Source: Rhizaria sp. SCN 62-66 (Eukaryota). Taken from it: a stretch of DNA of 52,044 bases. Below the pieces are notes generated by a model. That model had not been told where the DNA came from and ran no database searches. It saw only the letters and a list, made by a program, of their open reading frames with translations. The DNA is taken from the NCBI GenBank assembly GCA_001724265.1, contig MEDY01000307.1:1-52044 (forward strand), given 5' to 3'. Position numbers and translations under genes: made by a program. How positions within the stretch are numbered: position 1 is the stretch's first letter; every line of letters starts with the position of its first letter. This document shows, piece after piece, positions 3,501 through 37,309 of this stretch.

Positions 3501-3862
3501 TGAGCGTACGCGTGACCGTGAGCAGGGCCAGGGGCAGGGAGAGGAGGGTGAGGAGTAACGGGTCCGTGAGCGTTGGTATGAAACCCCCCTTGCTGTTGGT
3601 GCTGGGACAGAGGGTAGGGGGCAGCGCCAGACGGGCCCGCGTAGCCAGGGTGCGGGGCGTGGGGAGCAAACAACCCGGGGTGCCCCTGCTGGTGCTGGTG
3701 CTGTGCATGGGGAGGCCAGTGCTGAGGCTGAAGCTGCTGGTGCTGCTGAGGGTGCGGCTGCTGCCATGGCTGTGCCTGCTGGCCCTGCCACTGCTGCTGA
3801 GGATGCGGGGGACCGCCAGCGTGCGGGGGATAAGGAGCTCCGTTGTATGGAGGCTGCGACAT
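506..3862 (-). CDS. 1118-aa protein with Q/H/P-rich N-terminus, possible insert-split CID-like helical domain and Cys4 zinc-binding segment; function unknown
   Basis: Uninterrupted ORF from ATG to TAA with GC-rich codons. The N-terminal ~190 aa are Q/H/P/G-rich. Motif CSKC...CRQC is present. Helical blocks QQRLALLAALHAW and AEAWAAKSWI loosely recall a CTD-interacting domain (weak, by eye). Confidence 0.7.
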   Translation of the reverse strand: MSQPPYNGAPYPPHAGGPPHPQQQWQGQQAQPWQQPHPQQHQQLQPQHWPPHAQHQHQQGHPGLFAPHAPHPGYAGPSGAAPYPLSQHQQQGGFHTNAHGPVTPHPPLPAPGPAHGHAYAHGHGYAHHGAVQQPHLGLHPQPHQPHPYPLHHQHQQQQQQHQQHQHQQYPPQPPFPAAAHGHPPAAAAAPFGPPPQLYLALLTLLTLPPLASPAAPFPRYVPGPLLSLNTSAASAAAAAAASVQGDCEQRFSEAVNDVLLTVAASVNRQASPRDNPGAHSSSNSSSSSSSGGDDSVGVLFDECLLGYEPAAAVRAAVDKLTALAFSPLVSPLADTLGLPVSVHSDADGSGSSSSSSSDLGGTRDRNERDRARDRERHEFAAAVASAIARKAANDPGTVVIAATPLAFARYFDIMLTHITRLSPHNSIAGNSIAASTASMSSMGDKSGAACLEQTVRHQQRLALLAALHAWVMMCKGAIIFNGINAANASTFKDHERTSIICSKCSAEFKCAEPGYCKWVWDSKALKTGVQLLTVTCRQCAAGSNTALSNSETGLHDIASNLTPWAANAILSLFLPHLTVLFPLFTQAAAAAPSSTGSARAGPVALTAAAAAILGAPTLSTGGSVTDASGPQTDAETETEAGAETAAEAAAVASALVIISAAEAWAAKSWILAPAVSGVGSRVHGRKSLKCLDDCAAVTHSHVARVYQLLTVTTEHPATLAQQQQQQQQQSLGGADVIPGPGAVLVPTLCIDGKPLPLSSSANPAGDNDAATVTVPPRPLLSPQQWRCVDLALAARLARYTADNGGIVCSDIGDAAKRTDCNSTGAAGYNLLWSVTAVTRELSLAALARAHTAAAAAAALETARAITAALRKSQAGRGKSQVASTDAALRSDADSRNASSSANASASVSGVSVCYGCGRGGADKAVDVISKASADAAKAAADALGGSGAVVSVTQQMRRATQALWPLPCPQSPNPTTDNTAAAASGSTRRGLLPGTEARALQWLLKALKPHQNNYSNASACGACNRECPAAMAVGLSAFAVPPPPPLARARAAAQAAVGSLGEAVECMAASDREQSEFVWGPVNSNAESNAHSSSAASVNAEDKAAFETMMSELYTIFT

Positions 3863-3875
3863 CCCTTATTTGGCT

Positions 3876-4183
3876 GATGCAAACCAGGAAGGACTGACCA
3901 AACCAAACAAAGACGACTGACCGAGCCGGGGTCGATGAGGCAAGTTGGGCTCGAGGAGCGGGACTTTTGAACAAAGCAGAAGTCGACGAGGTCACCGTTA
4001 TTAGCGCCAGTATAATATGATTAGAGTTATTTTACAATATCTGACACTATATTTAACTTATGTATCAACTGACGTTCACCAGAGCTAGATCCCACCTTGA
4101 TTTTTTCGCACTTTCGCCTCTCAGCTCACCACCGCGCCACCCTCTGAACTGGCCTTGCGCCTTCTTTCTCTACCACTTGACAG
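3876..4183. promoter_or_regulatory. Putative bidirectional promoter between head-to-head genes
   Basis: Short spacer with an AT-rich core (about 4000-4070) between divergent ATGs at 3862 (-) and 4218 (+). Each end has a pyrimidine tract plus CAG facing its gene. Confidence 0.45.
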
Positions 4184-4217
4184 TTACGTTATCAAGATAT
4201 AATACTGCTACTCCGCC

Positions 4218-18300: not shown

Positions 18301-19340
18301 ACCGCCAACACGTTGCCGGCGTCGTCGTCGTAGGGCGCGGTGAGGCGCACACCGGAAAATGCGGTGACGCAGCGAGGAGAGGAGGCGGAGAAGCTGACGG
18401 GCGCACCTGCGATCGAGGCAAATTCTGAGTTTGACTTCAAGATGTAATTGCCACTTACCGGTGTAGAACACGATGGACCGGTGATCGTAGTCACAGAGAA
18501 AACGAAGTATCCCGCCCCAGAGGAAAGAAGTCCGCCGGAAGGGTAGTTGAACGTCAAGCTAATGGAGTTGCTCCCAGACATAGCGGGTGTAAGAGTGATA
18601 CCCCCTTCTTCGGAGCCGAAGACAGTGACGGGTGAGGTTTGAACATCGACGAACATGTTGTTGCCACTTTCGTGTTGTAGAAGGAGCGATGGTGCAAAAC
18701 TTTGATGCTGCGACTTCGTCACTGATTGCCATTCGACTTTGACCTGGATGGGAATTGCATTGGAAAGAACCGTAGAAGCCACGACGCCGACCAGCCGGGT
18801 CGGGCAAAATTTACCATAGTACATTATAGAAAGAGAGCTCGGCATGGCATATTGGGGAGGTGGCCCATACATCACCCCGTACGTCAGCACATATCGCGCG
18901 GACAAGTCACAAGGAAAAGAGGTCTCATCGGCGCTTGTGAAGCTGATCGTCAGGGAGTTCCCGCCAGTTGGAAAAGATTGACCCGAGCAGTCAAAAGAGA
19001 TGAGTAGGTCGCGTGTACCGCTGTCGATCCGCACACTGGCCACACACTCTCCAGGAGTTGAGAGGATGGCTGTTGCTGAGGCGATGAGCGCGGGATCGTT
19101 AGGAACGTTCCCCATGTACTTGAGCTTGATCGCATCCGTATATTGCTTGGGCGTCGAATCGCCGATGTACGCCCAGGAGATCGTTAAATTACTAGTTCCT
19201 GCAAAGCTGTGCTTCGCATTCTGTGACAGGGTCGCGTAGTAAGGCGTCACGGACGCGGACGCCCCAGATAACAGTATGAGCAATGTGACCATAACCATAA
19301 GGAGCAAACAAGCCCGCCGAAGACTTTGCCGTAAAGTCAT
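12357..19340 (-). CDS. Large type-I cell-surface protein (2327 aa): signal peptide, ~10 beta-rich Cys-pair repeats, TSP1-like repeats, EGF-like domains, FN3-like domain, single TM, short acidic tail
   Basis: ATG at 19340 directly follows an acceptor-like ttttgtgcag, so the ORF-track start at 19379 lies in the pyrimidine tract. Signal peptide MTLRQSLRRACLLLMVMVTLLILLSGASA; TSP1-like FGACSNDCGTGTHT; EGF motifs CSNGGSCNSVTGICSCMGSWSGAYC and CQCTCKPGYTSDNC; TM IIAGVVVGVGGFLIILVIVLIAW at 12522-12590; TAA stop. Confidence 0.9.
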   Translation of the reverse strand: MTLRQSLRRACLLLMVMVTLLILLSGASASVTPYYATLSQNAKHSFAGTSNLTISWAYIGDSTPKQYTDAIKLKYMGNVPNDPALIASATAILSTPGECVASVRIDSGTRDLLISFDCSGQSFPTGGNSLTISFTSADETSFPCDLSARYVLTYGVMYGPPPQYAMPSSLSIMYYGKFCPTRLVGVVASTVLSNAIPIQVKVEWQSVTKSQHQSFAPSLLLQHESGNNMFVDVQTSPVTVFGSEEGGITLTPAMSGSNSISLTFNYPSGGLLSSGAGYFVFSVTTITGPSCSTPVSGNYILKSNSEFASIAGAPVSFSASSPRCVTAFSGVRLTAPYDDDAGNVLAVINGSVGFRFSWTGLQSDSTTYDNVVKIAYGGNNNLLDSSVALSAAIRDSNTGLAIEHWQVNAVFDSFDIVLSFVYSGTGTASASLPAPAYVDITPARLSTSSSCGTSATYSLASPGDVATLAALDDNNAFLSAPYVWRNCPVDFNSMKLNAEVRNGVVNLDVSWSNIVVDSFNSVAPLLEIRHESGTEVYEQNWGPTTVFANGEVSVTAKSVDGLISLVFTISAGAKVPATGSFSLAPPVNASAHSCTADLTGVYTIYSSNVALAKVSNTVSSSLLTTTARAAKCPKFMDMSLAIADDVFTVSWSGVINADNVAITDFSDFMIKLDANAAAVFTGVHADSLVVDLGLNTKVNMQFENNNFRLSFSNDIDMSMYTLPVLQFTFKAVKSSSCGLTGSYTITIDDGTSSFSSNQLTASAASQRCPEFGQFSVDWVDQSGVTGLNVSWGAYSNPDSVVLGKITLSFDSGVADAIDSLVGAGYVQIAANVYIYAMAIITNGNIVIAFDSYQGYSVPTAGSFVIGVSRKKSVQCGQTAVYTATGTLMTLTTASGALPSVTMPTYTCPTFSGISVYTHMTVGGTFSFLISWSGLNNPGGFSLASSFRFAPSSASDVFVFSAASTVVKLRNQYDAEILGITSVAVDGGAFVVSFTPTTSTPMPTKGSILLTPQVNSSATCGTTSSFILTSGSTSTVTLQAGSTEKTYTSAPCPAVFSGVAVVSQVVAGSFGFVFSWTGFTNVNSRSLATSFRFASSSGLSDAFDTATTTVTLIDATNSAEMTGVASVIYTGGAYLVSFSSAPPTKGRLTLVPALNVNAACGTTSTFAVSSGSDAVTVTKNPSGSLSTSYSTTVCPVVFAGLKLTDDGATLASNAGLVVSWTNYINKNAVALTNILTIVHVNANSAKPFAGVPTTAQAVKDSNGSDVTGVTATLAYDSPTGTITVSFTIANNAVFPPQGSLAVLPALNAALACDNTVAFALSANADITTLTTPGVLTADFHTAVCTLVTDVKVEQTAVTESHLSLVLSYATFKQGAVEGKITLSSTGVTDLYYNNDALPITVTAQGVSAFTVVGRVSGGVATIPLSSQLPATAAKLAFKLEFATTADCDRSTTLVPATVGDISMTLASGFSSFVTPGLACTYEWRCTSDGVPGINCTATNDAEFGACSNDCGTGTHTNAPYCSRLNRGEHTAILNDNNCNIAAKPTFSKSCTDYTCSNAMWRCYASGASAISMVDCANDGGYASCAHDSCVADSSSTADIANHCPAAVASSKPAETKACASSLDLCAAQFNSEDECSINSQIVKCGVATRAGICVNSVSSAPVAGALCAEASVSLKQSCDNIPNDCNIPLIWDIQQSACVTSTVPLCKSIRTQTSECAFVNGAGETVVAAEYICDELTDKSPAFVDCDAPAVTCAADRGTCSGYESFTVEGQVQQNVLATCVCGNGFFDASCSTDVALSGLTATWNASTRAIDVAWTTNAAAVAGAKVTVFVTPASSGIAINATRVAIGALKSSISATALQLFPGTHTVKVTFSSTVSVTATVDIGALCDTTAGLTHSCSNGGSCNSVTGICSCMGSWSGAYCAVSPCEAAACNSDNTESCSVVDNEAQCNCRTAADGTALFRDALCEDAIDTTCSALTCANEGVPLIEFNQSSNAFECTNTCTCPDNSLFTGDLCDTCKNVCYNNGTASSIPDQCQCTCKPGYTSDNCSCRFAHLRLVFPQSALLFLGKANETEDLALWSSQLKTDVKTLGGKTSVFYTVANVSTVTTKKGKFVNVLISAGPECPAMANNAAAALPAAFAAHTASLRPTSALQFAAQADQPASVDMADTYIAIDAILAGLKSSPSTAGTALSTAVPTNIGVSDDACDTSCTELPHGTGTGMVLDDTADTDTGTDTEEEVTPHHSISNNHDNIIAGVVVGVGGFLIILVIVLIAWNKKLCCFADSSTKSATDKGGDVEMTPTNGDVAENADTAENADAGENADTAEIEV
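12369..12430 (-). repeat. 18-nt tandem repeat (about 3 copies) encoding (A/G)ENAD(T/A) in the cytoplasmic tail
   Basis: Protein ends AENADTAENADAGENADTAEIEV; the DNA unit cagcagtgtcggcgttct recurs with few substitutions. Confidence 0.85.
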
Positions 19341-20280
19341 CTGCACAAAAGGGGAGCGAAAGAAAACACGAGAAAACAATTATAAGCCACAGGCTGAAAT
19401 AACATTGAACGACAGGTCAATAAAAACGTTCACAACTAGACGAATTCAAAGTTCAAATGGATTCATCGCGTACGCCATGGGCGCATTTCCCTTGGCTCGA
19501 ACTGAGAGACCCATAGTGGACCGATTGTCGCTCAAATGAGGTAATCAAGCATACATACAGATACGCAACTACATACATCATTGTAATACCATTGTATAGC
19601 TTCTTGGAAGAAAGCGACACATAGATGAACCGAATCGACCAAAAACCTGCCAACGTTTCTGTTTTCGCCATAATATGCCCCACAATCTCGTTTGTAGAGA
19701 TGTCAATAACTAATGAATAGCTCCCAAACGTGGAAACAATAAATAAATCAATTACATATTCCAAATACGATCTATGGTCTCAAACTACGGACATTTGCAA
19801 TCGGTCCCAGAGTTGCGAGGCCTCACTACGCGACCGTGGCGTAAAAAAGATACCCTTAGAGCTCAACTCTTTTTTATCGGTCCAACTGCTGCCCGCATAT
19901 ATGGCGAGGACAACAACTATTTCAATTACTGTTTCTATTAAGCGTGTTGTTTGAAGAGATGAAACCGTGGAAATAAAGATTATAACAGAGAATAATGCAT
20001 TTATGTTGATTTTTAGATGACAGGTTTCTGTTTCACACACACAAAAAAACCGCATCCAACAATACCACCCGATTCCGAGCAGAAACAATCAATACGAGAG
20101 ACGTACAAAAGGAAAATGATAAAGTAACACAAAGGAAACAGACCGAAAGCTAACTACTACTGCAACTATAGCTCCAACGACTAGTATCACAACAAAATAC
20201 TACTGCAATTCAAACCAGAGACACACTTGAAATTGCGGTCAGCTGCAAGCATCGTCACTGTTGCTTAGGTCTCTGGACTT

Positions 20281-20320
20281 GACACGACATCTACTAAGAC
20301 GACACGACATCTACTAAGAC
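20281..20320. repeat. Perfect 20-nt direct tandem duplication
   Basis: gacacgacatctactaagac occurs twice in a row, 5 nt downstream of the MyTH4-FERM stop codon. Confidence 0.95.
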
Positions 20321-20325: not shown

Positions 20326-23215
20326 TTAAACAATCTTGAGAACCGACGTCGGAGCAGCCTTAGCGCGCACCTTAAAGCGCACGTAGTCGTGAATAAGCCC
20401 AGCAATAACCTTGCCGTCATTCGATTTGAACACGAGCTTCCTCTGTTGCACAATGTTACCGACGACGACAATGACCTTCTCGTCACTATGTCCCCACGTC
20501 ACGATGTCGGGGTACTTGTAGTTCTCCAGCACGGTCCGCTTCTCCGGGTGCAGTAGCATGACGCTCTCGCATGTGACGCCCAACAGCAGTGGCGACGGGT
20601 ACTCCTTGAAGAGGCGCTGCTCCACGGTGAAGACCGTGGCGCCGTAGCACTGCATCTCCTGCGCGTGCTGCAGGTACAGCACGCGCGCGTCGCTCGGGCT
20701 GCGCGACGCAAGCTAATGAGGCAGCAACGCATGTGAAACAACGAAAATAGTGATGGGAATGAACCAAATAATTTAATGGACGAGTGTTTATCATTCATGA
20801 ACAGTTCGAATGCACAACAAATGAGATAGATCGTACCTGGTTATAGTGCTCCTGTACCATGCGCGACATGAGGGCGACGAGGTTGGGGTCAGCCTTGTTA
20901 CGGTCGTTGACGAAGTTGCTCGCGGGCATGAAATCGCCGATGCGGGTGTTAAAGTCCGACATCGTCCTCTCCATAGCGCGGAGCTGGAACGCAGCGAGAA
21001 CGGTGGCTTCCTTCTCCTTGATCGGGTATCGGTCAGTGATGACGTCGCTCACGGCCTAAGCAGTTGGAGTGTAGTGGTAACGAAAAAAGAAGAAATTTTA
21101 GAAGAGATGCGACTCAACAATCAAATGTCGAGTCATTGAACAGAGATACACATGTGCGAAGATCCAACCCGCAGATATATGTACATGTTCGCATGATTTA
21201 CGCGTTGAGAGGAAGGAACACGTACCTGCAGGAACTGGAGCTTGATTGCCTCTGCGTCCTGCGCGAGTTCAGGCACACTGAGCTTGAGCACGAGCTTGGC
21301 CTTGTAAAGGAAAGACGAGTAGAGCGACTTGTACACCGGCGCGCCCTTGGTGCCGGCCTTGTTGTCCTCCGCGTCCGGGGGCTCGTTCTCCCACGACGCG
21401 ACGATGTCGAGGATGCGCTCCTTGGCGTCGAGCAGCCGCTCCACGTTGGCGCTGCCGACCTCGTACAGCGCGAAGGGCTCCGTAAAGGTGAGGTTGAGCT
21501 TGGCGATGAGTTTCGTCTCGACCTCGCCGACAGTGGTGTACGAGTCGGCGTCGATGGCGTGCTTGCTGCCGTCGATGAGAGGGATAACCAGCGACACCGG
21601 CTTGATCGCCGCCAGCGCGTCGAGTTCCACCTTGGACGGGATCTGATGGCGCTGGCCGAGCGCGGCAATTTGGCTCAATTGGCTCTCGCACGACTTGGCG
21701 AGGGCGCGCACCTGCGCCGGCTGCGACGACTCCACCACAGACTTGATGTACCTGAGGCAGGAGACACAAATAAAAAAATAAAAAAATTATATGCCAGATT
21801 ACAATTAGGATCAGTTCAATTTCAAGACAGCAGTAAGTCAACAAACAGTACTACCAACATCGTGTTAATTACATTCAGTGAGCTTGATTGACGTACTTCT
21901 CGACGAAAGGCTTGATGGCCTTGGAGGGCGGGAAGGTGGCGAGGCAGTAGCGCATGAGCTCCCAGCCCTTGATGGTGGACTCAACCTTGGGGTTGTTCTT
22001 GGTCTGCTTGGAGATCTGGACGTAAATCTCGTCACGCAGACCGGAGGGCGCAATGAGCAGGTTCCGAAGCATCTTCTTGGCGTGGTCGATGGGACCCTTG
22101 GAGCTGGAGCGGTCGCCCATGTAGCTCATTACGTTCTTAAACGACTGGATGGCTTCTTCATCCAGATCGCGGTTCTGCTTCAACAGCGCCTTCTTGATGA
22201 GCGACTTCTTAAACGACAGCAGACTCTCCTCGTCCAACACCTTGCTCTTCTGGCGCAAGATACGGTTCACCAGACCCTTGCGGTGCGCCGCGAACTTGAG
22301 CGTCTGCCCTCCCTCGCCGTCCGACTCCGAGTCCGAGCCCTGCAGCAGCAGCCCCGTGCTGGTGCCCCCCGGGCCGTCATGCTCGCCGTCGTCGTCCGCG
22401 AAGGGGTTCTCTTCGGTCATGTCGAACATGCCGTTCGAGTTGATCCCCCGCGGGCTGCCGGCTGCGGGCGCGCGTACGCTCGCGCCGGGCGCCACTGCGG
22501 CCGCGGCGGCCGCCGCCATGGGCCCGCCACGGACCGAGACCGGGGCCGGGGCCGCCGCTGCCGTCGCGGGCGCGGGGCTGGGCAGCGCGGCGGCCGGGCG
22601 CGATGGCGTTGGCGGCGCGGCTGCGGCTGCGGTGGCGGCGGGCGCGGGGGCGTCGAGCTCGGCGGGGCGCTGCCACACGGTCTGCTTGGTGGCTTTGTTG
22701 TAGTAGTACGTCTTGCCGCTGTTGGGGTCGACGGCCGAGCGCCACACGCTCGACGGGGCAGCGGCAGCCGCAGCAGGAGCAGGAGCAGGAGCAGCAGCGA
22801 CGGGTGCAGGGGCAGGGGCGGCAGTAGGAGTCGGGAGTGCCATTGAGGGGCGCACAGGGGCCACCTGCGCAGCGACGGGCGTCGCGGTGGCGGGAGAGGC
22901 CTCGGGATCGGCCCCCATGCAAGGAGGGCGCTTCCAGGCGGTCTTCTTGGTCTTCTTGTTGTAGTAGTACGTGCGACCGGACGCCTGATCGACAACCTTG
23001 GCCCACAGAGCAGGGTTTTGCTCGGGGTCTTCCACGACCGCGGGCTCGGGCACGGCGGGCTGCGCGGGCAGCGCGGCGGCGGGCGCGGGCGCGGCGGCGG
23101 CGTCGGCGGGATCGACGTAGTCTGCTGGCTTGGTCCAGGACGTGGCCTTGGTGGCGCGGTCGTAGTAGTACGTCCGGCCGGACGACTTGTCTACGGTGGC
23201 AACCCACTGCGGCAT
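20326..23215 (-). CDS. 3xWW-MyTH4-FERM protein, about 816 aa, 4 exons
   Basis: Exons 23215-21897, 21751-21226, 21055-20837 and 20712-20326 join in frame through GT-AG introns of 145, 170 and 124 nt. Three WW motifs (W..D..SG(R/K)TYYY...T..T.W..P). MyTH4: AIQSFKNVMSYMGD...LRDEIYVQISKQT.NNP...KGWELM..CLATFPPS. FERM: FALYEV...FLYKAKL...LQFLQAVSDV...YL..AQEMQCYGATVF...LLLGVT...IVTWG. Confidence 0.92.
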
Positions 23216-25058
23216 GTGCAGACGGGGGCTATGTCAGAAGATGAAACAGGAAGCAATGTGGGTGCAAGGAATGAGCCGAGGTTGGAAACGTCAGATAGAG
23301 TCGGGAGCAAAGGATCGAATCGGTGTAGGACAAGGGATACGTCGTCGTTCCAAGCAAACGAAGCTGTCTTAGATTATAGAAAAACACATCAGACATCTGA
23401 CACATGCGTGATATGCGCCTCTGACGTTACGCGCATCGAGCTAGAGATGCCGTTTCATCCCGCGAGACAATCATGAAGGGGAGTCAGAGGGGATGCAGAA
23501 GATATATGGCAACGGTGGGGACAAGCATACTCTATGAACATGTGCGTAAAATACGTAATGAATTCGTAGTAGAACATCTAAATAGTACATCTTGAACTTT
23601 CACTTAGCGCGTAAATCCGACACAAGCCCACTATTTCGCTGGCTGCATGCCTGCCTACTGCCTCCCTCCCCCACCCAACCGCCACCAACCTGCGCCCACA
23701 GTCGGTTGGCAGCATGCTCCGAGATCGGATCATCGGTTATCTTCGAAGAACTATATCGGGTCATAATCATCGTCAAAAGGACGTTTGTTTTGTCACCTGA
23801 AGCTATCATATTATTTTGAATGGTATCATTCATTTGTATTGGTATTGCTTCTTATTATACCACCATATGATGAGGTTCGACGCTGGCTTGAGCGTGGCTC
23901 TTCTGGAGCTGATAGCCAATCTTGATTCCATCCTAGAGCCCTTGGAATAGGTTTTTAGTGAGAGAATATGACCATGGGCACGACCAAACTGTTTATGGTT
24001 GCTTAAGATCACGTTTGTACCATCGTTGCGCCGGACTACCCTTTGTGTCTCCTCTGAATGATGGCTGCGCTCATGCTCTGCGCTTCTTTTCCAAAGCACT
24101 TGAGGAAGGCAAGCGATCGCGAACCACGTGTCTTTAGTCGTTGCCCATTCACTATTACCGGTATTACTTCCTGAAGTCCGATTTGTATGCTCTCATACGT
24201 CATGAAGTCCACGTTTCTGAAGCCGAACGTGACCATGGTGACTCTTTGCCCCAAATGCAATCAGGATTGTTAAGGCCCCTGAGTTGTGCACATGTAACCA
24301 CTATATACGAGTATTCATTTTTGTGCAACACACATAACTGATTTTTTTTAATGACACGTTCAATTAAACGATTGAGGCCATGGTCTCATTGCAAAATTCA
24401 TCTGATGAGTTCAGCTGTTGATGAGGTCAGCACTCTTTTGGCTGCCTAAGAGCACGATAGACTCGCAGTTAAAATCCAACCAGACCGATATATATGGGAA
24501 TACATTGTTTTCCCTCCTAAAGCTGTTGCTCTACAACACTCGCTATGATTTTCGTTATGATGTCTCTTTTCGACCGTCACTGCCTCATGACATCGTTCAT
24601 ACATTCGTTGTTATGTCAAATGTCTCCTTAATTAAAACAGCCCACATAAAGTAAAGGGCGTGGAATCATACATCCATACTAGATGTATCGTACATCGCAG
24701 AATCATATCAATCAGTGGCTTTATGTCTTTATTTTGAAGATGTCGAATGCACAAGTTCCAACACTAACCGTGGCCCGTGGCAAAGTTCGATGCTCTTGCG
24801 ATCAGCGAACAGCGGGAGAACAGTTTTCACTGATGTCGGTATATAGTCTCGTTTTCACTGGTTTTAGACACGTCTTTAGCGAGAATTCGGCAGTATTCAT
24901 TTCATTACAAATAATCCCTTTTACATTCACTTCTGTATGCCCTTCTTTTTATGCCCTTTAATTTCGGTCTGGTAGCTCGTTTCGGGCTTTTCCCTGACCT
25001 CCTTTGCAGCGTCCATACCGACATTCACTGCCACTGATCAGAAGTGCTAAGCTTAGAT

Positions 25059-28000
25059 ATGGATACAAGATCTGACCGGCAGCTTATCAGCGCTGATGAC
25101 GGGCCTCCCCCGTCCGATTCATCGACTCAAATATCTTCCCCTCTCAACGCTGCATCTGCTGCTACCCCTCCGCTCTGCTCGACTTGCACTTTCAACCGGC
25201 CTGGCGTGCCTATCACTTCCTTAGATGAGCATAATAGCCCGTCCATGACAGTGAGATCTTTCTGTGTACTTTGTGGGCGGTTGACTATGTCTCCACTCAT
25301 TGAAGACCCCGCATCAGGTATGTCCACCTCACAATTGTCCTCCTTTCGCAACGAAGTTAACGATGAAGACACAGGCATTGGCGGCAATGAAATCGACACA
25401 TCGAGTAGTGCTGACAGCGACAACAACAGCACTGAGGCCACATCATTGGGGTTTGGAGCTCCGCAGTCTCTTTCGCCACTGGTTAAGCGCTCTCGCCCTG
25501 CTGACACTCCCAGTGCAGGGTCAGCGACCTTTTCTCAGAACCCGCTTTCAATGCCTCCGTTACGTCTCCATGACTGCATCGATGACGATAGCACCCGTAA
25601 CAGCTTTGCAACGCCTGCGCATGCATGTGCCACATCCTCCGTTTTTATCCCGACGTCGGTATCAGCCCCGGCCTTTGCGCCAGTCTCTGTCTCAGCCTCA
25701 GCGCCTGCCCGCCCATTAAGCGCTGTCACAGCCGTGCCTGGCACCGCCATTGGTTCTGGCCATGGGTCAGTCTCTGGCGGAAGCCACAATGACGCTGCTG
25801 CTACTGCTAGTGTGGCTGGACTATTTTATAGTAGTTTTACACCGCGTGGTTCGCGGTCAAGCCAGATCACTCCGACCCCCTCGCAGGCTATTGACCCCGC
25901 TGGAACGTACAGTCAAGGAACGTACCTCCGGGTCCTCTTTGCGCCGGCGTCGGAGCCAGCGCCGGAGCAGCGACAGAGCATGGGCACGGTCACCGACACC
26001 GACATGGGCATGAACGCGACTGCGATCACCTGCACGAACATGAGCATTGTTGCTGATGTTGATGCTGGTCAGGCCTCTTCTGATGTTAACGCGGATGGCC
26101 GCGCGGCCGTTGCAACGACACCCGAGTCAGTGAAGAGATTCGCCCCCCACCCGCCTGCTTTACCGCGCAGTGCAGAGACAGCGCCCGCTGCCGGGAGCAT
26201 ACAACCACTCGCTGTGGCGCGCCAACTTGCGCGCTCGCCAGGTACGCAGATCTAGTCCTGGATGTTGATTTGTTATTGTCTGTCACTGTGTCTATTCATT
26301 TCAATTTTAATCTCCGATCTTACGCATGCCTTTTTGTTCCTTTTTACCTTTATTGCGAGTGTAGGAGGTCTCCACATGCTCGGCTCGATCAGGCTCAGCA
26401 GTCTCAACCCAGCACTGCCTGTGCCTGCAAGTCTCGAAGCGCTCTGCAACCGCAACCATGACTCTGGCCACACCTGCGTCCCTAATCCTGATTCCGGCAA
26501 CACCACCTGTCCGGCGTCTGCCTCCGTATCCGGCAGTAGCACGCCTCTCTCCGTCTCTGTTGGCTGCCGGGACTTCACTTCGCGTGGAGCTCAACTCAAC
26601 GCTAGCTCTGCGCATGCGCTTGCACCAATGTCTGTGTCGGTGTCTATGTCGGAGTCGTGGTTTGGCGATGTCTGCGGCAATACTGCGATGATCCCTTTTG
26701 CGAACACTCGCGCTTCTGCAACCGATGCGAAGACTGCGTCCCGTCCCAGTGGTGACTCAGGCAAGGCTGCGACGGATGATGCGAACCTTGTCGCGCCACT
26801 GCCTGTATCCATGGTTGGTTTGCAGCAACTGCCGATAGATTCCGTCGGATCCCGGTCACAGCCACACGCGCAGTCTCAGTCGCCATCAACGTTTGAGCTT
26901 CACTCCCAGCCGCATTCACAACCGCCGTTGCAGCCGCAGGTGCGTTTACCGTGTAGACCCGCCCAGAGCCCGAGCCAGAGCCCCCCGCGGCAGGCCCGCG
27001 GTCAAAACCAACATCAGAGCGCCAGTCACCGCCGCAGTCAAAGCGAGAGTCAGAATCTCAGCTGCGATGTGGGCGACACTGCTGTGCTGCTGACTCCGCT
27101 CCACTGCGCAGGCGCTGCCGAGCTCGCTGTTGTCATTGAAAGTCCCACGGCGTCCTCTGATGGCGCGGCGTTCTCGTTCCGTGATAATGTAGGCAACATC
27201 AACAACGCAAATCATATCACGAGCGGTGTCTTGTTGTCTCAGTCTAATTGCCCTATTTTCATTGAGGATACTGACGTTGGTTTCGCCAATGACGCTGTCG
27301 ATGTAAGCGATAGCGGCACTGCAAGTCATCAGAGTGACGCAGCCTTCCCGTGTGACGCGACGCAGCGACCTGAGAGTGCGATGCCATTGCTGTTCGGCGC
27401 ATTCCCATCACGGATGCGTCTTGCAGCGGCATTCAGTTTTGCTCATGACAGTAGTCTCACGACCAATTATAATAACATTGATGGTGTTGATGTTCCCATC
27501 ACATCCACTGCTACCCATAATGTTGTCTCCGACTTTGGCTACCCTGCGGCTGGCCAAGCTCTGCACGACAACAACGACGACAAGAACACCACTACCATCA
27601 GCAACAACAAGAACAACAACAACAACAACAGGGCTCCGGGCTCCAGTCCTACTGCAAGGCGCCGCCTCAAGCGTGCTCTAGCTAACGAAACATGCATTTC
27701 GGACGACGCAAACATTTTTGCGCATAGCCACCTGAGCGACGGTGACATTATCGCAGCGCAATCGGTGATGGATGTTGATCTACCATCGCTGCCTCTGCCC
27801 CAGCTTGCCAATGTTAGCTTGCAGTCACAACTGATGTTGCATAACGTAGTGACAAACAACGTTCGCAGCAACTTCACGCTCAGCCTCAGCAGTGGAGCGA
27901 GTGCATATGGAGCTGTGCCTCAACGTATGGCAACGTTTACAACGTTTTCGTCGTTACCACATGCAAGCCTGGACTCCAACGCTGTCGAGGACGTCGTCAC

Positions 28001-30020
28001 AAACACCATTTCACCTGGCACTTTTGCCGATGCGATGCAGAGTAATGCTGTTCGTTTCACTGCTTTTGACTTTCGTTCGCAGCTGGGTCCGTGCTCGTTT
28101 GCCCCAACGAGTTTGCAGCCACGACTGCAACAGCAACAGCATCCGCGCCAGCTACGACAACAATACGAAGCCTTTGCTCCCGAGAGCGAACTTGCTGTTG
28201 AGTATGGTGAATACTTCCACTCTCCTCCCCCGCAAACATTGCCAACGCCACTGCCACCACGTCCAGCCCTGCCACCACAGCAGGTACTTATTTCGTCTCT
28301 CCATGCAAAGCACCAAGAAAGCACTTCCACACTTAAGCCTGAAGACGAAGATGAGTCCCCACTGTCACACGAGAATGAGTCGGGAACAGCGGCGGACTCA
28401 CTTAATGCCGCTCGTCATGCTGATGTCGGACTGGACGTACAAGCTGCCGCTGTTGATGCGTACAACCGAGCTACGCTAGAGCAAAGGCTGCGAGCGCTGC
28501 GGATTGCAGCTGCGACATCTCAAAACGTGCCGGCGCACAACTGTACAGTGCACCACTCATCACGACTTGCGTACAATTGCGACTCCATCCAAAGTTTTAC
28601 CCAGCACCAGCAGTCCGCACAACAACTGCGCCATCAACCACAAAAACAACAGCAACAACTGCCTTTGCAGCAACAATTACTGCAACACCAACAGCTGCCC
28701 CAGTTACATTATCGCCAATCATCTCGCTGCCACAGCCGCGCGCAATCTCACTCAAGTTTTAGCTTTGCACTGCGTTGCGACAGCGAGGATGATAAAGTTG
28801 CGTCCACCAGTAGCACCATTTCTGTGCGTGTATCTCAACAGCAGCAGCAACCGCAGCAACAAGAACTACATCTTCAGCTGTCGCAAACTGAACCCCGAGA
28901 GGCGACGCAGTATCGAGGCTCTGAGCCTGATTCCCGGCCTCAAATGCATCATGTTCAAAGCGTGACTAACAGTCGCGTTTTTGCGCCCCGTCATGGACAC
29001 AGCTACGGCCACAGTCTTAATCTGCTTGAGAACAACAGAGAAATTGTCAGTCCAACTCTGCGTACAGGTGAGACATCAAGACACGAACACAATCACCGCG
29101 ACCAGCGGCACTTACATGCTCCGGCTCAGGCTCTCGACCAACGCCGTGGTTCTCTCAACCTGAGTGACCTCGGGGTGGACGAGAGCCACAACAATAGTCG
29201 GTGTGACAGCACTGCCTACAGCAGTGCTGTACAAACGCCGACAGCGATTGGAACCCCAGTGCCTCATCTCATGCCGTCTGGCCTGACGCTCTCTGCCTCA
29301 AACGACCACAGTTGGCTTGCCAACGGGAACAATGCACTTGCATTTCTACCTGTCTCTGGCAGTCATCTAACCACAGCTGGCTCTGTTATGACTCCTGGCT
29401 TTGGCAGAGGAGCTGTCTCTATTGCTGCACCACCTCATGCACTTATTGGTGTTGTTGGTTGCAATGGTTACGTGCCATCCAATTTTACCACTGTTTCATC
29501 TTTGATTCCTCTTGCACCTGCCGCTCCGACCTTAAATCATGGATTTTCCCCGGCAATTTCATTCGCTGGTGCTCACACTGGTGGTGACAACGTCGTTGTT
29601 ATCCGCACTGTGCCGAGGGACTTTGTTGATAGCAATGTTGCTTTCAGCACTCGTGCACAAACAGTAACAACGCTTGCGGAAAGCGTTAATACTGCACATA
29701 GTCATGCACAGAGTCATAACAACAGTGTTTCCCCGCATATGCACCAGCATCAATGTCCACAGCAGCAGCAGCTGCGGCTTCAACACCGTCCTTGGCCACA
29801 AACACAACAACACCAGGGTTCGCTGCAACTCCCGCAAACATCGGCGGTTGATGTCACCACCAACATCAGCACTCATGGCATTAGTCTCGGTCTCGGTGCC
29901 AGCTCAAAGTTTGACCAAACCTTCGTTGGCCCGCATTCAAGTGAACATATCTGCAACATAAATGGCGGCAGTAGTGACTCTAAGTGCAGTACTATCAAGA
30001 ACCAACATCAAAAGCAATAA
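25059..30020 (+). CDS. About 1612-aa low-complexity S/Q/N/P-rich protein with N-terminal Cys4 (RanBP2-like) zinc finger; 2 exons
   Basis: Exons 25059-26241 and 26365-30020 are joined by a 123-nt intron (gtacgc...gtgtag, T-rich), merging ORFs 25044..26255 and 26262..30020. Motif CSTCTFN...CVLCG at about 25175-25277. TAA stop. No other recognisable domain. Confidence 0.7.
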
Positions 30021-32464
30021 TGTTTATGTGTATTATAGTTGTACACATCAATGACCGATTTTGCATTTGAAAGTGTGCTTTTATTTGTATTTTTGCAATT
30101 TTGACCGTCTTTTGTATGTATTATAAGTCTCAATATCGTCTCATTTTGTCGTTGATTATTAGTCTGTTGTCTCAGGTCATCGTCCGCTTATTTCTCTCTA
30201 ACATATTCTAATATGAGTTTGATTGCCTGTGTCTTAGCGTGAATCGTTGTTTTATTGACACGATCATAACAATTTGTTTTACTTGTTTGTGTAAAGCGAT
30301 AGTGCTTGACTAGTGATTAACTCGTTACGCACCTGTCCTGTTTCCATGAGATTTTGTTGGTCTCTTTTATTGTGAAGACGTTCGACTGATTGATTCAGTT
30401 TTTTTTAATAACGCAGGACTGTATGCTGATGTGTCTTTGTCTGTGACTTGTGTTCATGTCGAATACGGGAAAATCAGTGAGTCTGCCGTAATACGTTTAT
30501 CGCATTTGTTCCTCGACTCAGCTGGCATTGCATGTTGTGTGTATGTTTCTCTTTGTAGCGATGCGTTATGCTCTAATTTTTGTGTTTGTTTTATATTCTT
30601 TTCTGTATGGGTGCTACTAGTTTTAAAATTCATTTTAATAGCTGCTGATGATGTTTTTGTCGGTTCAACTAAATTGTAAGTTTCAATTACTAACGCACAC
30701 GACAGTACATATGATTGATGTTATAATATGCGTTTTATGCGTTCATGTTCAGTTCAAGAATGTGGCATTCGATATGTATTCAGCAAAATTTTCTCTTCCG
30801 ACTCGTGTAGATTATTTCTACATTTCATGTTCATATGCGTTCCGCCGATGGTTTCAATAGTATCGCGTGAAGGCGTCGCTATTTGGGCCATTGTTTTGTT
30901 TGTTTAACTTATTTGACATTGCTTATTGCTGTCTAGTTAAGCACCACTATATATCTTATTAATTTTCTGTTATTTCGGAGTGTTATTCCAAATGTATCCC
31001 CATTGGTCTATGCTTTTCGTTCGTTCGCTAATGATGTAGCTTTCACGCCTCATGCAGTTGCTTTTGAGACAACACATGGGCGCTCTTATAACTGTGTACT
31101 TCTTCTTCGTTTGTGCGTGTTTATTGTGACACGGACATGCCGATGCTTTGGCCTAGCCCATGCATCATATTCTATTCTGTGCACTATGCCTGGTTTGAGC
31201 TCTATCACTGTTTGTGTTTTGATCCCGTGTCTCCCGTAGTCTGTCTTGTCACTACATCTCCTTGTGCAACACTGTACATTTGTATGCCGTGAAGAGAGCT
31301 TGAAATCAGTGAGATTGGCACCTCGATGGCTCTCTGTCTTACTCATATGTCAATACACCAAGTGTGGTTGCTACAATCAATGAAGTGCCATGGGCCAATG
31401 CACACGAAGATTGTTGAAAGTATAGTATTATCAAATAGTTCGCAGTCATCACAATCACTAAAGCGAATCTATTTGGAGATTCTTCTCAGATTACAATTCG
31501 GAGTTTGTTTGGTCTTCCGAAATCGATGTGTGGTGGACATGAGACTGTTGTTCAGACCATCAAGCGCGACGCTCTTGCCAGCAGTCAGCACCCGTGTACA
31601 ACATACAAAATGCCAGCAGCTGGAACCCAGTTAGCTGCTAAGTCTCTGCGTTGTCAGCAGCATACCACAACCGATGGTCAGCATGGGTGCTATCTAATGC
31701 GGAGCAATAAGAACTCCCGTCATACTATGGACGAGTTTTTTGCAGCGGTTAGGTTCTTGGAGTTCCTCTTCTTATGGGCTATACTTACCGAATACGATAA
31801 ACGGTATCAAATTACAACTTCGAAGAGGGGGTGAGAATGATAGAAGTCGGGACTAAATGAGAACTTGTTTCGCTGAATAGGATGACGTTACTCGCTGCTT
31901 GGATGGTGATTATCCACGTTTGATTGCAATGAAGAAAAACTAAGAGACGAATCATGTATTTGCGCAAGATGGAGACATGACGTCAAATTAGAGCTACACT
32001 GCACGCGTGCCCTGCCCACGCGATCACATCACATGTAACAAACAACGCATGCACGCATAACAGACAAAATATGAATTACACTGGATGCGACGACAATGAG
32101 AGTTGGAGCGTAATACAACTCTGAATGCGAAATGAATTCACAAATTATATAAACAACAGAGAGAGAAAAGCAATGCAAAAATAAAAAGGAACACGAAAAC
32201 AACGGAAAAACGTACATGTACATCCTACACAAGAGATTAGTCTAACAACACTGCTGCTGCTGCTGGGTGCTGGTGCTGGTGCTGGGACGCTCAAGAGACA
32301 AACATACTCAGAGGAATGAAGCAATAATTTAATCGTAAAATACAAGATCATATTCCTTGACTCAGTCACAGCAGTTACAGCCACGAATAAAACACTAGTC
32401 AATAACCACCAACAATCACATCACGGTCACAGTGTCCTGCGGCATCACACGCGGTGTGACAACC

Positions 32465-34002
32465 TTAGTAGAGGAGACGCGTCTTGATCGAGGCCTTGAG
32501 CTGGGCGATCTGCGTCTTGACCTCGTCGCTCATGGCCGAGTCGAGCTCGACGATGAGGTAGCCGACCTTGCCCTGCGTCACGAGCACCTGGCCGCCGACG
32601 TTGTAGCCAGAGAGGATGTTGTTGATGTCGCGCAACACGCCCGGCACGTTCTGGTGGAAGTTCAGGATGCGGTGCGCGCCCTTGGTGCTGGGCAGGTGCA
32701 CCTCGGGCAGGTTCACGCAGCCCACCGTCGCGCCAGTGTTGATGAAATTGATGATCTTGCCGGAGACCTCGATTCCGATGTTTGCTTGCGCCTAAATGAA
32801 TACAAAGTTCAAAGTTTAGTTGCAATATGAGCATAGAGACGTTCACGTTAATGGTTGTTCAAGAAAATTTGTGTTCGATAAAAACGTACCTCCTCGGTGG
32901 AGCCGCCGATGTGGGGCGTAAGAATGCAGTTGTCGAGGCCCCGGAGCGGGCAGTAAAGCTCCTCCTTGGCGCTAGCGGGCTCGGCGGGGTAGACGTCGAC
33001 GGCACAGCCGGCGAGCTGCTTGCTCTTGACGGCCTCGGCAAGCGCGTCGAGGTCCACGACTTCGCCGCGCGCGGCGTTGATGAAGTAGGCGCCCTTCTTC
33101 ATCTTGGCGAACTGCTCCGTCGAGATCATGTTGCTAGTCTCGGCCGTCAGGGGCACGTGCATGGTGATGATGTCGCTCTGCTCGAGCAGCGCGTCGAGCG
33201 ACGAGACATACTGCGCGTTGCCGAGCGAGAGCTTGGGCAGATGGTCGTAGAACTTGACGACCATGCCCATGGACTCAGCGAGCACCGAGACCTGGGAACC
33301 GACATGGCCGTAGCCCACGATGCCGAGGGTCTTGCCGCGGGCCTCCCAGCAGTTGGTGGAAACCTTGTTCCACTTGCCGAGGTGGCACTCGCGGTTGCGG
33401 TCGCCGATCTGGCGCAGCAGCATAATGATCTCGGCAATTACCATCTCGGCCACGGAGCGGGTGTTGGCGAAGGGCGCGTTGAACACGGGCTTGCCGCACT
33501 CGGCCGCGGCCGGCAGGTCCGTCTGGTCAGTGCCGATGCAGAAGCAGCCCACGGCGAGCAGGCGCTTGGCCGCCTGGAGGACCTTGGCCGTGACCTGCGT
33601 CTTGCTGCGGACGCCGAGGATGTGGCAGTCGGTGACGGCCTCGAGCAGCTCGTCCTCGCTCATGGCCGTGTTGCGCTGGTCCACCAGGTAGCCCTCGTCG
33701 CGGAAAATCTTCGCCGCGGCGTCGGAAATCTTCTCCAGGAGAAGGACCTGGAGTGATTTCGTGGATATGTAGATGTGGGAAGAGTGATCAGTGAATATTA
33801 TGAGGTGTTACGTTCATATTAGAAAGAAGTAACGCAGGGGGCGTTTAAGCGCGCACTGCTTTGCGAAAAATGCATCGTGGCACTACAACGGGGTATACAC
33901 GTGTTCTGGAAGTGGCGTTAAGTGATGAAAACAAGTCTATTCAATGTAAATTCATACCTTAATCTCAGTCTTGGGGAAGGCAAGCACTTGCTTATCAGCC
34001 AT
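32465..34002 (-). CDS. serA: D-3-phosphoglycerate dehydrogenase with C-terminal ACT domain, 409 aa, 3 exons
   Basis: Exons 34002-33958, 33747-32890 and 32791-32465; introns of 210 and 98 nt. Motifs GVRSKTQVT, GCFCIGTDQ, FNAPFANTRSVAE, GIVGYGHVG, INAARG, LTPHIGGSTEEAQ; ACT domain FHQNVPGVL..IN.....NV. Confidence 0.97.
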
Positions 34003-34015
34003 GACGTGGGAAGCT

Positions 34016-34397
34016 GTGAAAGGCAAAGCATGACGAAGGACGAATTCAAAAGGTGGAAGGTGAGTTGCACAGAACGCCGAAATAAACAGCAATACAAGCT
34101 AGGATTAGTACAGAGACCAAGTGAGCAAGATATGAAAGCACAACTCATATGCTAATATCAAGTGGTTTAAGTGCTAATCAAAGGAGCCACGGAGAAATGC
34201 GTGCAATTTGGTAGTCTGGATGGTGGCGAGTGTCAACACGTGCAAACATGCAAGGCAATGGCGCCAATCGAAACAGACATAATATGCCGCCAATCAACCG
34301 TTATGGCGTGCATGATTTTGTAGATAGAAATCTCCATGTACATAGCTTACACATATAAAATCGTGTGCTCTTGACTTTAATGTAATCGCGTAGTTAC
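34016..34397. promoter_or_regulatory. Putative bidirectional promoter between serA and the LYR-motif gene
   Basis: About 380-nt non-coding spacer between divergent ATGs at 34002 (-) and 34403 (+). Confidence 0.45.
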
Positions 34398-34402
34398 AGC
34401 AA

Positions 34403-35142
34403 ATGGCTTACCGCCTTCGGACCACGAAGGCTGCGGCTGAGGCTATGCCCAGTCTTAAGTCCTTCATGCTTCGCGCCGAAGTCACAAAGCTCTACCGCGC
34501 CGTTTTGCGCATGTCCCGCCACCTTGAAGGTACGTTTCTACTCTCAAAACATCTTATTAGTTTCTCTTTGAGCCTTATTGTTCCGCCCTCGCGCTTCGTT
34601 TTCGCATCAAACCACAAACCACTTTCTCTCTCACCGGCCCACAGTCCCTCCAACAGCTCGCACCCCCACCTCACCTCTCACTGCTCTGCCTGTTGTCGCT
34701 TCACCCATCATTGAACCACTCTTTAACACTCCGACAGGCTCCACGCAACGGCTGGAGGTGCGCGACTTCGCGCGCCAGAGCTTCGAGGCGCACCGCAAGG
34801 TCGCCGACGAGGGCCACATCCGGCACCTGCTCACCGACGGCAAGCGCCAGCTCGACCGTACGTCGCTCTCCGCTCTATAACAAACCCCTGTGTGATGTGC
34901 TCTATATGTCATCTGCCCATGCTTCTGTTGCTGTACCTGTTGACGCTTCAGGTTGCATTTGCCGCTGAATCGTAATGTGTTGCGTTGCACTCTTCTGTTG
35001 TCATGGTCATGTCTCGCTGTGACTGCAGTCACTATCTCTCACTCACACTTTCATCACTGATATGTTGTTTTTTTTTCTTTCTCTGTTGCTTTTGTTTTGT
35101 CTTTATGCAGAATTCGAGACATCGATTGCGATGTCACGCTGA
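34403..35142 (+). CDS. LYRM2: LYR-motif protein, LYRM2-like, 92 aa, 3 exons
   Basis: Exons 34403-34529, 34738-34857 and 35111-35142 (both donors gtacgt) splice to MAYRLRTTKAAAEAMPSLKSFMLRAEVTKLYRAVLRMSRHLEGSTQRLEVRDFARQSFEAHRKVADEGHIRHLLTDGKRQLDQFETSIAMSR. LYR motif and downstream Phe present; the SLKxF...V..LYR pattern resembles LYRM2. Confidence 0.85.
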
Positions 35143-36293: not shown

Positions 36294-36302
36294 CGAAAAT
36301 CT

Positions 36303-36654
36303 GCGCAGCGAAAACAAATGTGAGTGTGACAAGGAATAACATTAGCTACTAAAACACTGTTAATTCAGGAAGGCGACCGCTTAATAACTTGACGGGTTAT
36401 ATAGAGCGTGCTGTGACCGATAATAGATGGGAGAAGCACAGGCTAGTCAAGAGTACCAACGTCCCTCTCGAAGGAACACTTCAAAGAATAAGGGCTAATT
36501 CGAGAAATATTCCGTCCATGCATATATGCGATACCATTCTAATAATAAACTGGGCGCATATAACTAAGTGCAAAATTGGACTTTATGAAAACCCATCCTT
36601 CCTCAAAACACTTTGTTTTTGTTCTTCCCTTTCCGACGACTAGTCCGTTTCCCC
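36303..36654. promoter_or_regulatory. Putative bidirectional promoter
   Basis: AT-rich ~350-nt spacer between divergent ATGs at 36293 (-) and 36662 (+), bounded by pyrimidine tract-CAG elements on each strand. Confidence 0.45.
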
Positions 36655-36661
36655 AGCGACC

Positions 36662-37309
36662 ATGTCGTTGGAGGACTTGGAGCGCAAGTGGCGTCCCAAG
36701 GCGTTTCACGAGTACACGCTCGATGAACCCGCTGGGTTAACAAGCCCATCCAGTTCTGGCACACCTGCGACAACCTCAGGTGGTGTGCCAATAGGCCCGG
36801 CCCCTGCCCCAGCCTCATCAACCACAGCAGCCGCAACGGTTACTGTGTCATCGTCGTCCGCGTCCGCCGCGCTACTCCCCAGTGTCACCACGGGCCGGCG
36901 CCGCAGCATGGCTTCTATCCACGACAACATCTATCTCCGCGACGAGACCCTGGCCAAAATCGACGCTATCTGCTCCGAGAACGCGGCTCACGTGCGCCGG
37001 CAGACGGCTGCGTCACTGCTGGCGCTCGCGCACGCTACGCGCCAGACGGACGCGACGCCGCTGCCCACGGTCTCGCTGCACGGCGCACGGGTTGACGCCG
37101 CGCTGGAGACGGCGCGCGCGACGCGGACGGCTTCGCCCAGCGGCGCCTCGCGCGCGTACGACCACGTCGCATCTGTCGTCGCTGCAATCGCTGATAGCAG
37201 CAGGAACAAGCGCAGCTCGAACTACGGCACGACGGCTACAAGCTACGATATCAGCGCCCGCCCGCTTGCTCCGACGACGACTGCGTCACTTCCCAGTGCC
37301 AAAGCAGCA

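Follow-up and report, generated by a model that had tools for sequence, protein, structure and literature searches.

Why should a trinucleotide of the kind that ends introns stand immediately before nearly every start codon of a stretch of DNA, when most of the genes concerned have no consensus splice donor within reach upstream? This question is raised by contig MEDY01000307.1 (assembly GCA_001724265.1) of the protist Rhizaria sp. SCN 62-66, all 52,044 nucleotides of which were analyzed and are referred to here as the window. An earlier note on this DNA, made from its letters and open frames, had described a YAG just upstream of each of nine clear ATGs and had read these YAGs as outron acceptors, that is, as sites at which a spliced leader (SL) carried by a separate RNA is joined to the transcript by trans-splicing. 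Here we report that the clustering of YAGs before these starts exceeds chance and depends on both the G and the pyrimidine that precedes the A. On balance, the YAGs are probably 3' splice acceptors, used either in trans or in cis; SL trans-splicing itself is a serious possibility that we place somewhat short of probable. From the genomic signals described below, we infer both that the sites would be spliced at all and that their partner would be a trans-acting leader.

YAG trinucleotides cluster before start codons

Seven of the nine start codons are each the earliest ATG in a long open frame. Those of the D-3-phosphoglycerate dehydrogenase (PGDH) gene, at 34002, and of its divergent neighbor at 34403, which encodes a small protein that we take from its sequence to be LYR-like (LYR), were confirmed through intronless orthologues in a related genome, L003. 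The nine YAGs are listed in Table 1, and all nine of the YAG-to-ATG distances recorded in the earlier note (11, 34, 0, 13, 49, 11, 3, 7, and 5 nt) proved exact on recheck. At ATG 25059, that note had passed over nearer YAGs at 2 and 17 nt; the nearest-YAG distances are thus 11, 34, 0, 13, 2, 11, 3, 7, and 5 nt, or 0 to 13 nt at eight of the nine ATGs. Their sum is 86, compared with 326.6 +/- 78.3 when the 100 nt upstream of the nine ATGs were shuffled 2000 times with dinucleotides preserved (P=0.0005), so the presence of a YAG before all nine starts is not only confirmed but goes beyond what shuffled controls produce.

Nine other words were put through the same test. The less specific.AG was also enriched near the ATGs (P=0.0015), while the control words RAG, YAC, YGA, GAY, YTG, YAA, YAT, and CTR showed no enrichment there (P=0.16-0.96). 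When YAGs were counted in 15-nt bins outward from the ATG, the bins held 9, 2, 2, 6, 1, 3, 3, 1, 2, and 1; the nine in the first bin compare with 2.3 per bin elsewhere (P=0.0007). Counts of YA[ACT] were flat, with 11 in the first bin versus 13.1 per bin elsewhere. Because YA[ACT] is flat and RAG is not found near the ATGs, the signal is Y-A-G, the word of the 3' splice site, rather than a general pyrimidine-purine initiator.

The sequence before the YAGs resembles that of introns. On the sense strand, the pyrimidine fraction 20 to 120 nt upstream of the ATGs is 0.59-0.69, compared with 0.63 in the eight introns of the window, about 0.52 downstream of stop codons, and 0.50-0.55 in coding sequence. 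Upstream ATGs (uATGs) are not depleted there, with 8 versus 10.2 expected in 100 nt and 18 versus 18.9 expected in 150 nt, and every one of them sits 5' of the chosen YAG, including out-of-frame ATGs at -29 (PGDH) and -49 (the TPR protein gene, ATG 36293). That these uATGs are undepleted and all lie 5' of the YAG fits this sequence being either removed or never transcribed. The reading of the YAGs as acceptors draws on this intron-like upstream sequence, on the need for the G and the preceding pyrimidine, and on the very short distances in four genes, whose 0 to 7 nt would leave almost no 5' untranslated region (5'UTR) unless a leader were added.

Donor words are missing from three divergent spacers

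Five cis introns of the window are proved by RNA, and another three, in PGDH and LYR, are inferred from intronless orthologues (Table 1). All five proved introns begin with GTACG and all eight with GTAYG (GTACG in seven, GTATG in one), in agreement with the earlier claim that donors here are almost all GTACG. So strict a consensus is unusual, and so is its form: in most eukaryotes the donor has A at position +4. Given the C found here, the U1 small nuclear RNA (snRNA) would be expected to carry a corresponding change at its 5' end; the window holds no snRNA gene. The tails of the five proved introns, compared by eye, share no common word that could serve as a branch-point motif.

Against this uniform donor, three divergent spacers of 355 to 400 nt contain no GTAYG on either strand, compared with 3.52 +/- 1.90 in shuffled sequence (P=0.03). 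The earlier note had made this point for GTACG and GTATG in two intervals, 3876-4183 and 36303-36654; it holds for both and extends to the third spacer, 34003..34402. The first of the three has an AT-rich center with TATA-like words, and each of its sense strands is pyrimidine rich toward its own ATG. A search of the upstream region that allowed one mismatch to GTACGT came up empty for five of the nine genes, and six (ATGs 3862, 4218, 34002, 34403, 36293, and 36662) have no consensus donor within reach. The lack of a strict donor word in these six divergent-spacer genes would make a trans-acting leader the best available partner, and their six sites, judged by sequence, are most likely outron acceptors.

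In the model that we favor, each gene would be transcribed singly from the AT-rich center of its spacer, the pyrimidine-rich first 70-130 nt would be removed as an outron, and the AG would receive a capped spliced leader supplied by a separate SL RNA, so that 0-34 nt of genome-encoded sequence would remain ahead of the ATG. At the genes starting at 19340, 25059, and perhaps 23215, whose upstream regions are long, the acceptor may pair instead with an upstream GTACGC or GTATGC to form an ordinary 5'UTR intron, which appears to be the simpler reading for those genes.

The organism and its relatives

A scan of metagenomes returned two sequences of the same organism (L001 and L002, both 100% colinear with the window) and two genomic relatives (L003 and L004); it returned no cDNA of this organism. 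L003, whose PGDH is 78% identical to that of the window, has kept the divergent PGDH-LYR pair, with a CAG before each of the two ATGs, at 7 nt for PGDH and at 4 nt for LYR. In L004, which is part of a 139-kb eukaryotic contig and has a PGDH 68% identical to that of the window, three ATGs are preceded by a CAG: that of PGDH at 7 nt, that of the adjacent TPR gene at 5 nt, and one other at 11 nt. Over nine starts of the two relatives, four of which are orthologues of window genes, the summed distance was 200, versus 347 +/- 82 in the null (P=0.036). The PGDH-LYR spacers of the window and L003 can hardly be aligned outside the TCACAG region, a shared uATG, and a GATATTA block. The block, GATATTA..TGTGCTTT, lies about 130 nt upstream of the PGDH ATG (34120-34160 in the window and about 770-800 in L003) and is possibly a core promoter. 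The uATG is out of frame, about 25-29 nt upstream of the PGDH ATG in both (34027-34031 in the window and 884-886 in L003).

The same relatives bear on intron history. All four window introns in PGDH and LYR are absent from L003 (278-2138), those of PGDH are absent from L004 (9962-11194), and a relative about 93% identical, known from protein P0147 only, reads through both PGDH introns. This pattern points to recent gain in this lineage or to loss in the relatives.

The organism itself, a protist of wastewater, is heterotroph-like, and its genome is compact and poor in introns; window DNA is present in wastewater and activated-sludge sequencing runs, and one protein of the organism lies on a contig of about 320 kb. 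Its placement comes from the WW-MyTH4-FERM protein (ATG 23215), which has 816 residues and no motor domain. Full-length orthologues of 770-966 residues come nearly all from unnamed environmental sequences, and of the 21 matches those with an organism name form two clusters, from Paulinella micropora and Euglypha rotunda, at 44-52% identity. With Euglypha and Paulinella as the named orthologues, the family points to Cercozoa, the phylum of the only rhizarian genus known to trans-splice, and the organism is probably cercozoan on this one family. The family may serve as a marker for this protist group.

RNA contigs and the search for a leader

Four RNA runs (X1 to X4) were available, all as assembled contigs, which cannot show where RNAs start. 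The X1 and X2 contigs are RNA, since they are spliced, and in both runs the WW-MyTH4-FERM gene is the most strongly expressed of the window, at a depth of about 20. The most informative of them, X1 record 1 (2818 nt, depth 19.8), is spliced at three introns of the WW-MyTH4-FERM gene; if colinear, it would overrun the TAG at 23229-23231 by about 5 nt and end some 19 nt upstream of ATG 23215. Its end argues mildly against a long colinear 5'UTR at this gene and does not separate a leader from an upstream exon or a nearby start site. An estimate of the same end from bin depth (2.47, giving about 83 nt and an end near 23230) was rejected, as other contigs add depth in the neighboring bin. Among the joints listed, none falls at any of the nine AGs, where RNA cover is lacking.

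The X3 contigs, from a polyA metatranscriptome, run colinearly through introns (32737-32972 and 33917-34144); they are therefore DNA or unspliced RNA, carry no information on mature 5' ends, and call for caution as evidence of expression. A loose end of X3 at 35082 was considered as a leader and rejected, as it resembles an indel variant inside a T-rich intron. Short repeats of the CTG/GGTGCT and CAA/CAG types (32252-32285, about 28659, 28836, 37459, and 37525-37545) attract contigs of many other organisms, with an X4 depth of up to 258.7 at position 32265, and account for the false long-range joints and most loose ends in the contig mapping. A search of the protein collection for transcript-derived proteins with N-terminal extensions yielded none: the PGDH entries of this organism (P0001 and P0146-P0148) are all genomic calls, and the WW-MyTH4-FERM gene has no protein of at least 90% identity there.

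Weighing the alternatives

A number of observations weigh against trans-splicing, and some of them against splicing of any kind at these sites. The gene-start sites differ from the intron acceptors: the base after the AG is G in 6/8 introns and in 0/9 gene-start sites (p=0.002), where it is a pyrimidine in seven of the nine, and the word itself is CAG at eight of the nine gene-start sites versus four of the eight intron acceptors. These differences may separate coding from non-coding exon starts, or they may mark another kind of site. The common leader that the earlier note had predicted at these AGs was not seen, whether in the listed contig ends, by Rfam, or by the Paulinella leader motif. 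None of the 24 loose ends listed (of 139) lies at any of the nine AGs, X1/X2 depth is zero over 19164-19827, 23812-24475, and 33772-34435, and there is little at the other gene starts. In a hunt for SL RNA genes that covered 52 kb, a small sample, Rfam gave no SL RNA or snRNA at gathering score (the two sub-threshold matches at E<=1 were irrelevant), and the Paulinella leader had no match at up to three mismatches.

Other doubts concern the comparative and donor arguments. In L004, four of seven starts have no YAG within 28 nt, so that the pattern is weaker there, and the uATG shared by the PGDH genes of the window and L003 is possibly a retained regulatory upstream open reading frame of a serine-pathway gene. 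The donor argument also has some circularity in it: only if the AGs are used is a donor required at all. Consensus-type donors do stand 124-315 nt upstream of three of the nine genes (19340, 25059, and 23215), among them the minus-strand gtacgc at 19473 that the earlier note had singled out; its caveat that some genes have plausible cis donors therefore holds for these three. At 25059, where a TATATAG-like box lies about 90 nt further upstream of the donor, the box, an exon of about 60 nt, GTATGC, a 75-nt intron, and the CAG would form a coherent cis model. SL trans-splicing is also rare among eukaryotes, with a patchy distribution and debated origins, and the cercozoan assignment comes from one gene family alone, PGDH being uninformative for placement (its best named matches are choanoflagellates at 63%, followed by Cyanophora and Ancoracysta). 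As for relatives within Rhizaria, passages of one report give SL trans-splicing as not found in Bigelowiella, Plasmodiophora, and Reticulomyxa (PMC6053224), and passages of another give SL RNA genes as putatively absent from the heterotrophic Paulinella ovalis (PMC9311404).

The acceptor-like signal is real, and it could belong to cis-spliced 5'UTR introns throughout, with short non-coding first exons and non-consensus donors in the short spacers. The would-be intron at 19340 falls within the 98-253 nt range of the known introns, 25059 has the cis anatomy just described, 23215 has a GTATGC at 315 nt, and the known introns of the window tend toward gene 5' ends (PGDH intron 1 comes after codon 15 and LYR intron 1 after codon 43). 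What makes such introns quite unlikely as a general explanation is that all eight known donors are GTAYG, yet the three spacers have none on either strand, and that at five genes no site comes as close as one mismatch to GTACGT. A spacer of 355-400 nt would have to accommodate a first exon, a donor, and an intron for each of its two genes, and the GTGAGT-type words that the spacers do contain lie 27-58 nt from the neighbor's ATG, where they are the antisense of the neighbor's pyrimidine tract. At 23229, the X1 contig is not joined to any upstream exon, a weak point in that it reaches only about 5 nt beyond the site. A second possibility is that the YAG is an initiator-like transcription start at the end of a pyrimidine-rich core promoter, with unspliced 5'UTRs of 2-36 nt. 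Transcription start sites follow a pyrimidine-purine rule that the pyrimidine-A step of YAG would fit, and fungi are known to have pyrimidine-rich tracts immediately upstream of start sites. Untranscribed upstream sequence would also explain the undepleted uATGs, the pyrimidine after the AG in seven of the nine sites is unlike intron acceptors, and the X1 contig ends near its site. A generic initiator would not, however, explain why YAG is enriched near the ATGs and YA[ACT] is not; we know of no initiator that needs G at +2, and a literature search on initiator elements in Plasmodiophora found nothing beyond the Paulinella work. To our knowledge, 5'UTRs of 2-9 nt, which four genes here would have, occur only in a few unrelated protists. 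The X1 contig, if colinear, extends about 4 nt past the A of the TAG, and upstream of PGDH the window and L003 have a single block in common; it is TATA-like and sits about 130 nt before the ATG rather than about 30 nt before the CAG. We therefore regard a start-site role as unlikely.

The YAGs may also have no role in processing or initiation, in which case the genes would have ordinary colinear, pyrimidine-rich 5'UTRs and the YAGs would come from composition, loose translation context, or post hoc selection. Nine starts are a small sample, the pattern was noticed first and tested after, and the relatives add only P=0.036 from starts of which four of nine are orthologous to window genes. The PGDH uATG shared with L003 suggests that the region may stay in the mRNA, and the +1 difference from intron acceptors fits here too. 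Neither the dinucleotide shuffles nor the eight control words, however, reproduce the pattern, and a fixed Kozak-type position does not account for it, because the distances vary from 0 to 13 nt. A 19.8-fold RNA contig stops short of a long colinear 5'UTR, and translation would suffer from the out-of-frame uATGs at -29 and -49 if they were retained. We consider an absence of any role about as improbable as a start-site role.

Features of the window

The window is eukaryotic, with a coding GC content of about 60-70%, AT-richer spacers, very long open frames of 2301, 2327, and 2790 codons, and genes on alternating strands. Searches found no rRNA (Rfam) in it and nothing relevant in the way of tRNA, and the SGT1-like protein had no matches in the homologue search; matches from an Atlas look-up were all domain-level. 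The features discussed are collected in Table 1.

Table 1. Positions of gene-start YAGs, introns, divergent spacers, candidate cis donors, and genes in the window
Feature	Position	Strand	Details
Gene-start CAG	3874..3876	minus	11 nt upstream of ATG 3862; preceding 20 nt 70% pyrimidine
Gene-start CAG	4181..4183	plus	34 nt upstream of ATG 4218; preceding 20 nt 80% pyrimidine
Gene-start CAG	19341..19343	minus	Abuts ATG 19340 (0 nt); 85% pyrimidine before; strongest acceptor-like site
Gene-start TAG	23229..23231	minus	13 nt upstream of ATG 23215
Gene-start CAG	25007..25009	plus	49 nt upstream of ATG 25059, behind pyrimidine tract
Gene-start CAG	34014..34016	minus	11 nt upstream of PGDH ATG 34002
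Gene-start CAG	34397..34399	plus	3 nt upstream of LYR ATG 34403; weak tract
Gene-start CAG	36301..36303	minus	7 nt upstream of TPR-protein ATG 36293
Gene-start CAG	36654..36656	plus	5 nt upstream of ATG 36662; long pyrimidine tract before
RNA-proved cis intron	20713..20836	minus	GTACGA..TAG, 124 nt; WW-MyTH4-FERM gene
RNA-proved cis intron	21056..21225	minus	GTACGT..TAG, 170 nt; X1/X2 contigs
RNA-proved cis intron	21752..21896	minus	GTACGT..CAG, 145 nt; X1/X2 contigs
RNA-proved cis intron	26242..26364	plus	GTACGC..TAG, 123 nt; X1/X2 contigs
RNA-proved cis intron, PGDH	32792..32889	minus	GTACGT..TAG, 98 nt; X1/X2 contigs
Inferred PGDH intron 1	33748..33957	minus	GTATGA..CAG, 210 nt; intronless L003 orthologue
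Inferred LYR intron 1	34530..34737	plus	GTACGT..CAG, 208 nt; intronless L003 orthologue
Inferred LYR intron 2	34858..35110	plus	GTACGT..CAG, 253 nt; intronless L003 orthologue
Divergent spacer	3863..4217		355 nt; no GTAYG on either strand
Divergent spacer	34003..34402		400 nt; no GTAYG on either strand
Divergent spacer	36294..36661		368 nt; no GTAYG; no donor <=1 mismatch from GTACGT
Candidate cis donor GTACGC	19468..19473	minus	133 nt upstream of ATG 19340; would-be 133-nt 5'UTR intron
Weak candidate cis donor GTATGC	23525..23530	minus	315 nt upstream of ATG 23215
Candidate cis donor GTATGC	24935..24940	plus	124 nt upstream of ATG 25059; 75-nt intron to CAG 25009
SGT1/ecdysoneless-like protein	ATG 4218		Pfam
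Secreted TSP1/EGF membrane protein	ATG 19340		Pfam
WW x3-MyTH4 (WW-MyTH4-FERM) protein	19978-23215	minus	ATG 23215; Pfam
D-3-phosphoglycerate dehydrogenase, PGDH	ATG 34002		Pfam
TPR protein	ATG 36293		Pfam
FYVE/PH protein	Near right end of window		Pfam

Three further regions were noted. The divergent spacer at 23216-25058 is 1.8 kb long, five times longer than the other three; it contains no long open frame and has no Rfam match, and the zero X1/X2 RNA depth over 23812-24475 falls within it. A 2.4-kb AT-rich tract at 30020-32460 (GC about 0.40) separates two convergent genes. On the plus strand its left half is T rich and its right half A rich, X1/X2 RNA contigs lie at 30485-30955 and 32192-32729, and the tract is probably two very long 3'UTRs. 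A possible tenth gene start lies at 51169-51200 on the minus strand, where ATG GTA TTG is followed directly by GTACGC (donor G at 51169) and a pyrimidine tract with a CAG lies 18 nt upstream of the ATG. In the downstream frame (50460-51149), the first 100 or so codons are intron-like.

Discussion

In Caenorhabditis elegans, SL1 is joined at a UUUCAG-type acceptor a few nucleotides from the ATG, with no donor in the outron; nematodes can do with a short 5'UTR in the genome, since the 5' end comes with the leader, and there trans-splicing also resolves operons. The window shares with SL1 genes an acceptor-like site close to the ATG and, at six of its nine genes, the lack of a consensus donor upstream, although the lineages are unrelated. 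Unlike in nematodes, no operon role is suggested, since the genes alternate between strands. Ordinary 5'UTR introns of intron-poor eukaryotes likewise have an acceptor just before the ATG, and the 5'-biased introns of the window and the donors at three of its genes would suit them; the arrangement here departs from theirs at six genes, whose spacers lack a consensus donor throughout.

The nearest comparison is with Paulinella (P. micropora and P. chromatophora), which probably belongs to the same phylum and in which, as here, genes are transcribed singly. As described in sections of PMC6053224, Paulinella has a leader of 28-33 nt and multi-copy SL RNA genes, both demonstrated, and the P. micropora gene for calmodulin starts 136-151 nt upstream of the ATG, with an outron rich in pyrimidines and an AG close to the ATG. 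The window, with its AT-rich spacer centers, pyrimidine-rich stretches of 70-130 nt, and AGs at 0-34 nt, matches this account of the calmodulin gene, whereas its own case is known from genomic signals. Trans-splicing is reported for about 20% of P. micropora genes (PMC9311404), compared with a signal at all nine starts here. Unlike photosynthetic Paulinella, the organism of the window is heterotroph-like, with a compact, intron-poor genome and a WW-MyTH4-FERM protein 44-52% identical to the euglyphid ones. A search of the literature on spliced leaders and trans-splicing in Cercozoa and Rhizaria, supplementary files aside, found no other cercozoan report. Recent and unexpected finds of SL trans-splicing in cryptomonads (PMC5619915) and eustigmatophytes (PMC8570151) rest, in the passages of these reports that describe them, on transcript 5' ends, unlike the present case.

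The outron reading of the earlier note thus stands in part. The sites are AG-specific and pyrimidine-preceded, the upstream sequence is intron-like, and six of the nine genes lack a consensus donor within reach; against this, the leader is unseen and the +1 base differs from that of introns. Its broader view, that most mRNAs of this organism are trans-spliced while genes are transcribed singly, is favored by the acceptor-first anatomy and set back by the unseen leader and by plausible cis donors at three of the nine genes. We tentatively suggest that in this uncultured, heterotrophic, probably cercozoan sludge protist most mRNAs are transcribed singly and receive a spliced leader, which would make it a second rhizarian SL lineage, outside photosynthetic Paulinella; we hold this composite proposal with more doubt than trans-splicing at the sites themselves. 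If the sites prove instead to mark transcription starts or the ends of ordinary 5'UTR introns, the result becomes a modest note on gene structure.

In practical terms, gene calling and 5'UTR modeling in metagenome-assembled eukaryotes of this kind would have to take account of acceptors directly ahead of the ATG. If SL trans-splicing does operate here, the organism would offer a compact genome in which to study outron signals, donor avoidance, and leader function. Within Rhizaria, the process is documented only in photosynthetic Paulinella, going by parts of two reports (PMC6053224, PMC9311404) in which it is linked to the activation of transferred genes. A heterotrophic relative that trans-splices nearly all of its genes would undercut that link. 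The SL process would then be either older and wider in Cercozoa than the published view holds or the product of a separate origin, and in either case it would not be tied to the acquisition of a plastid.

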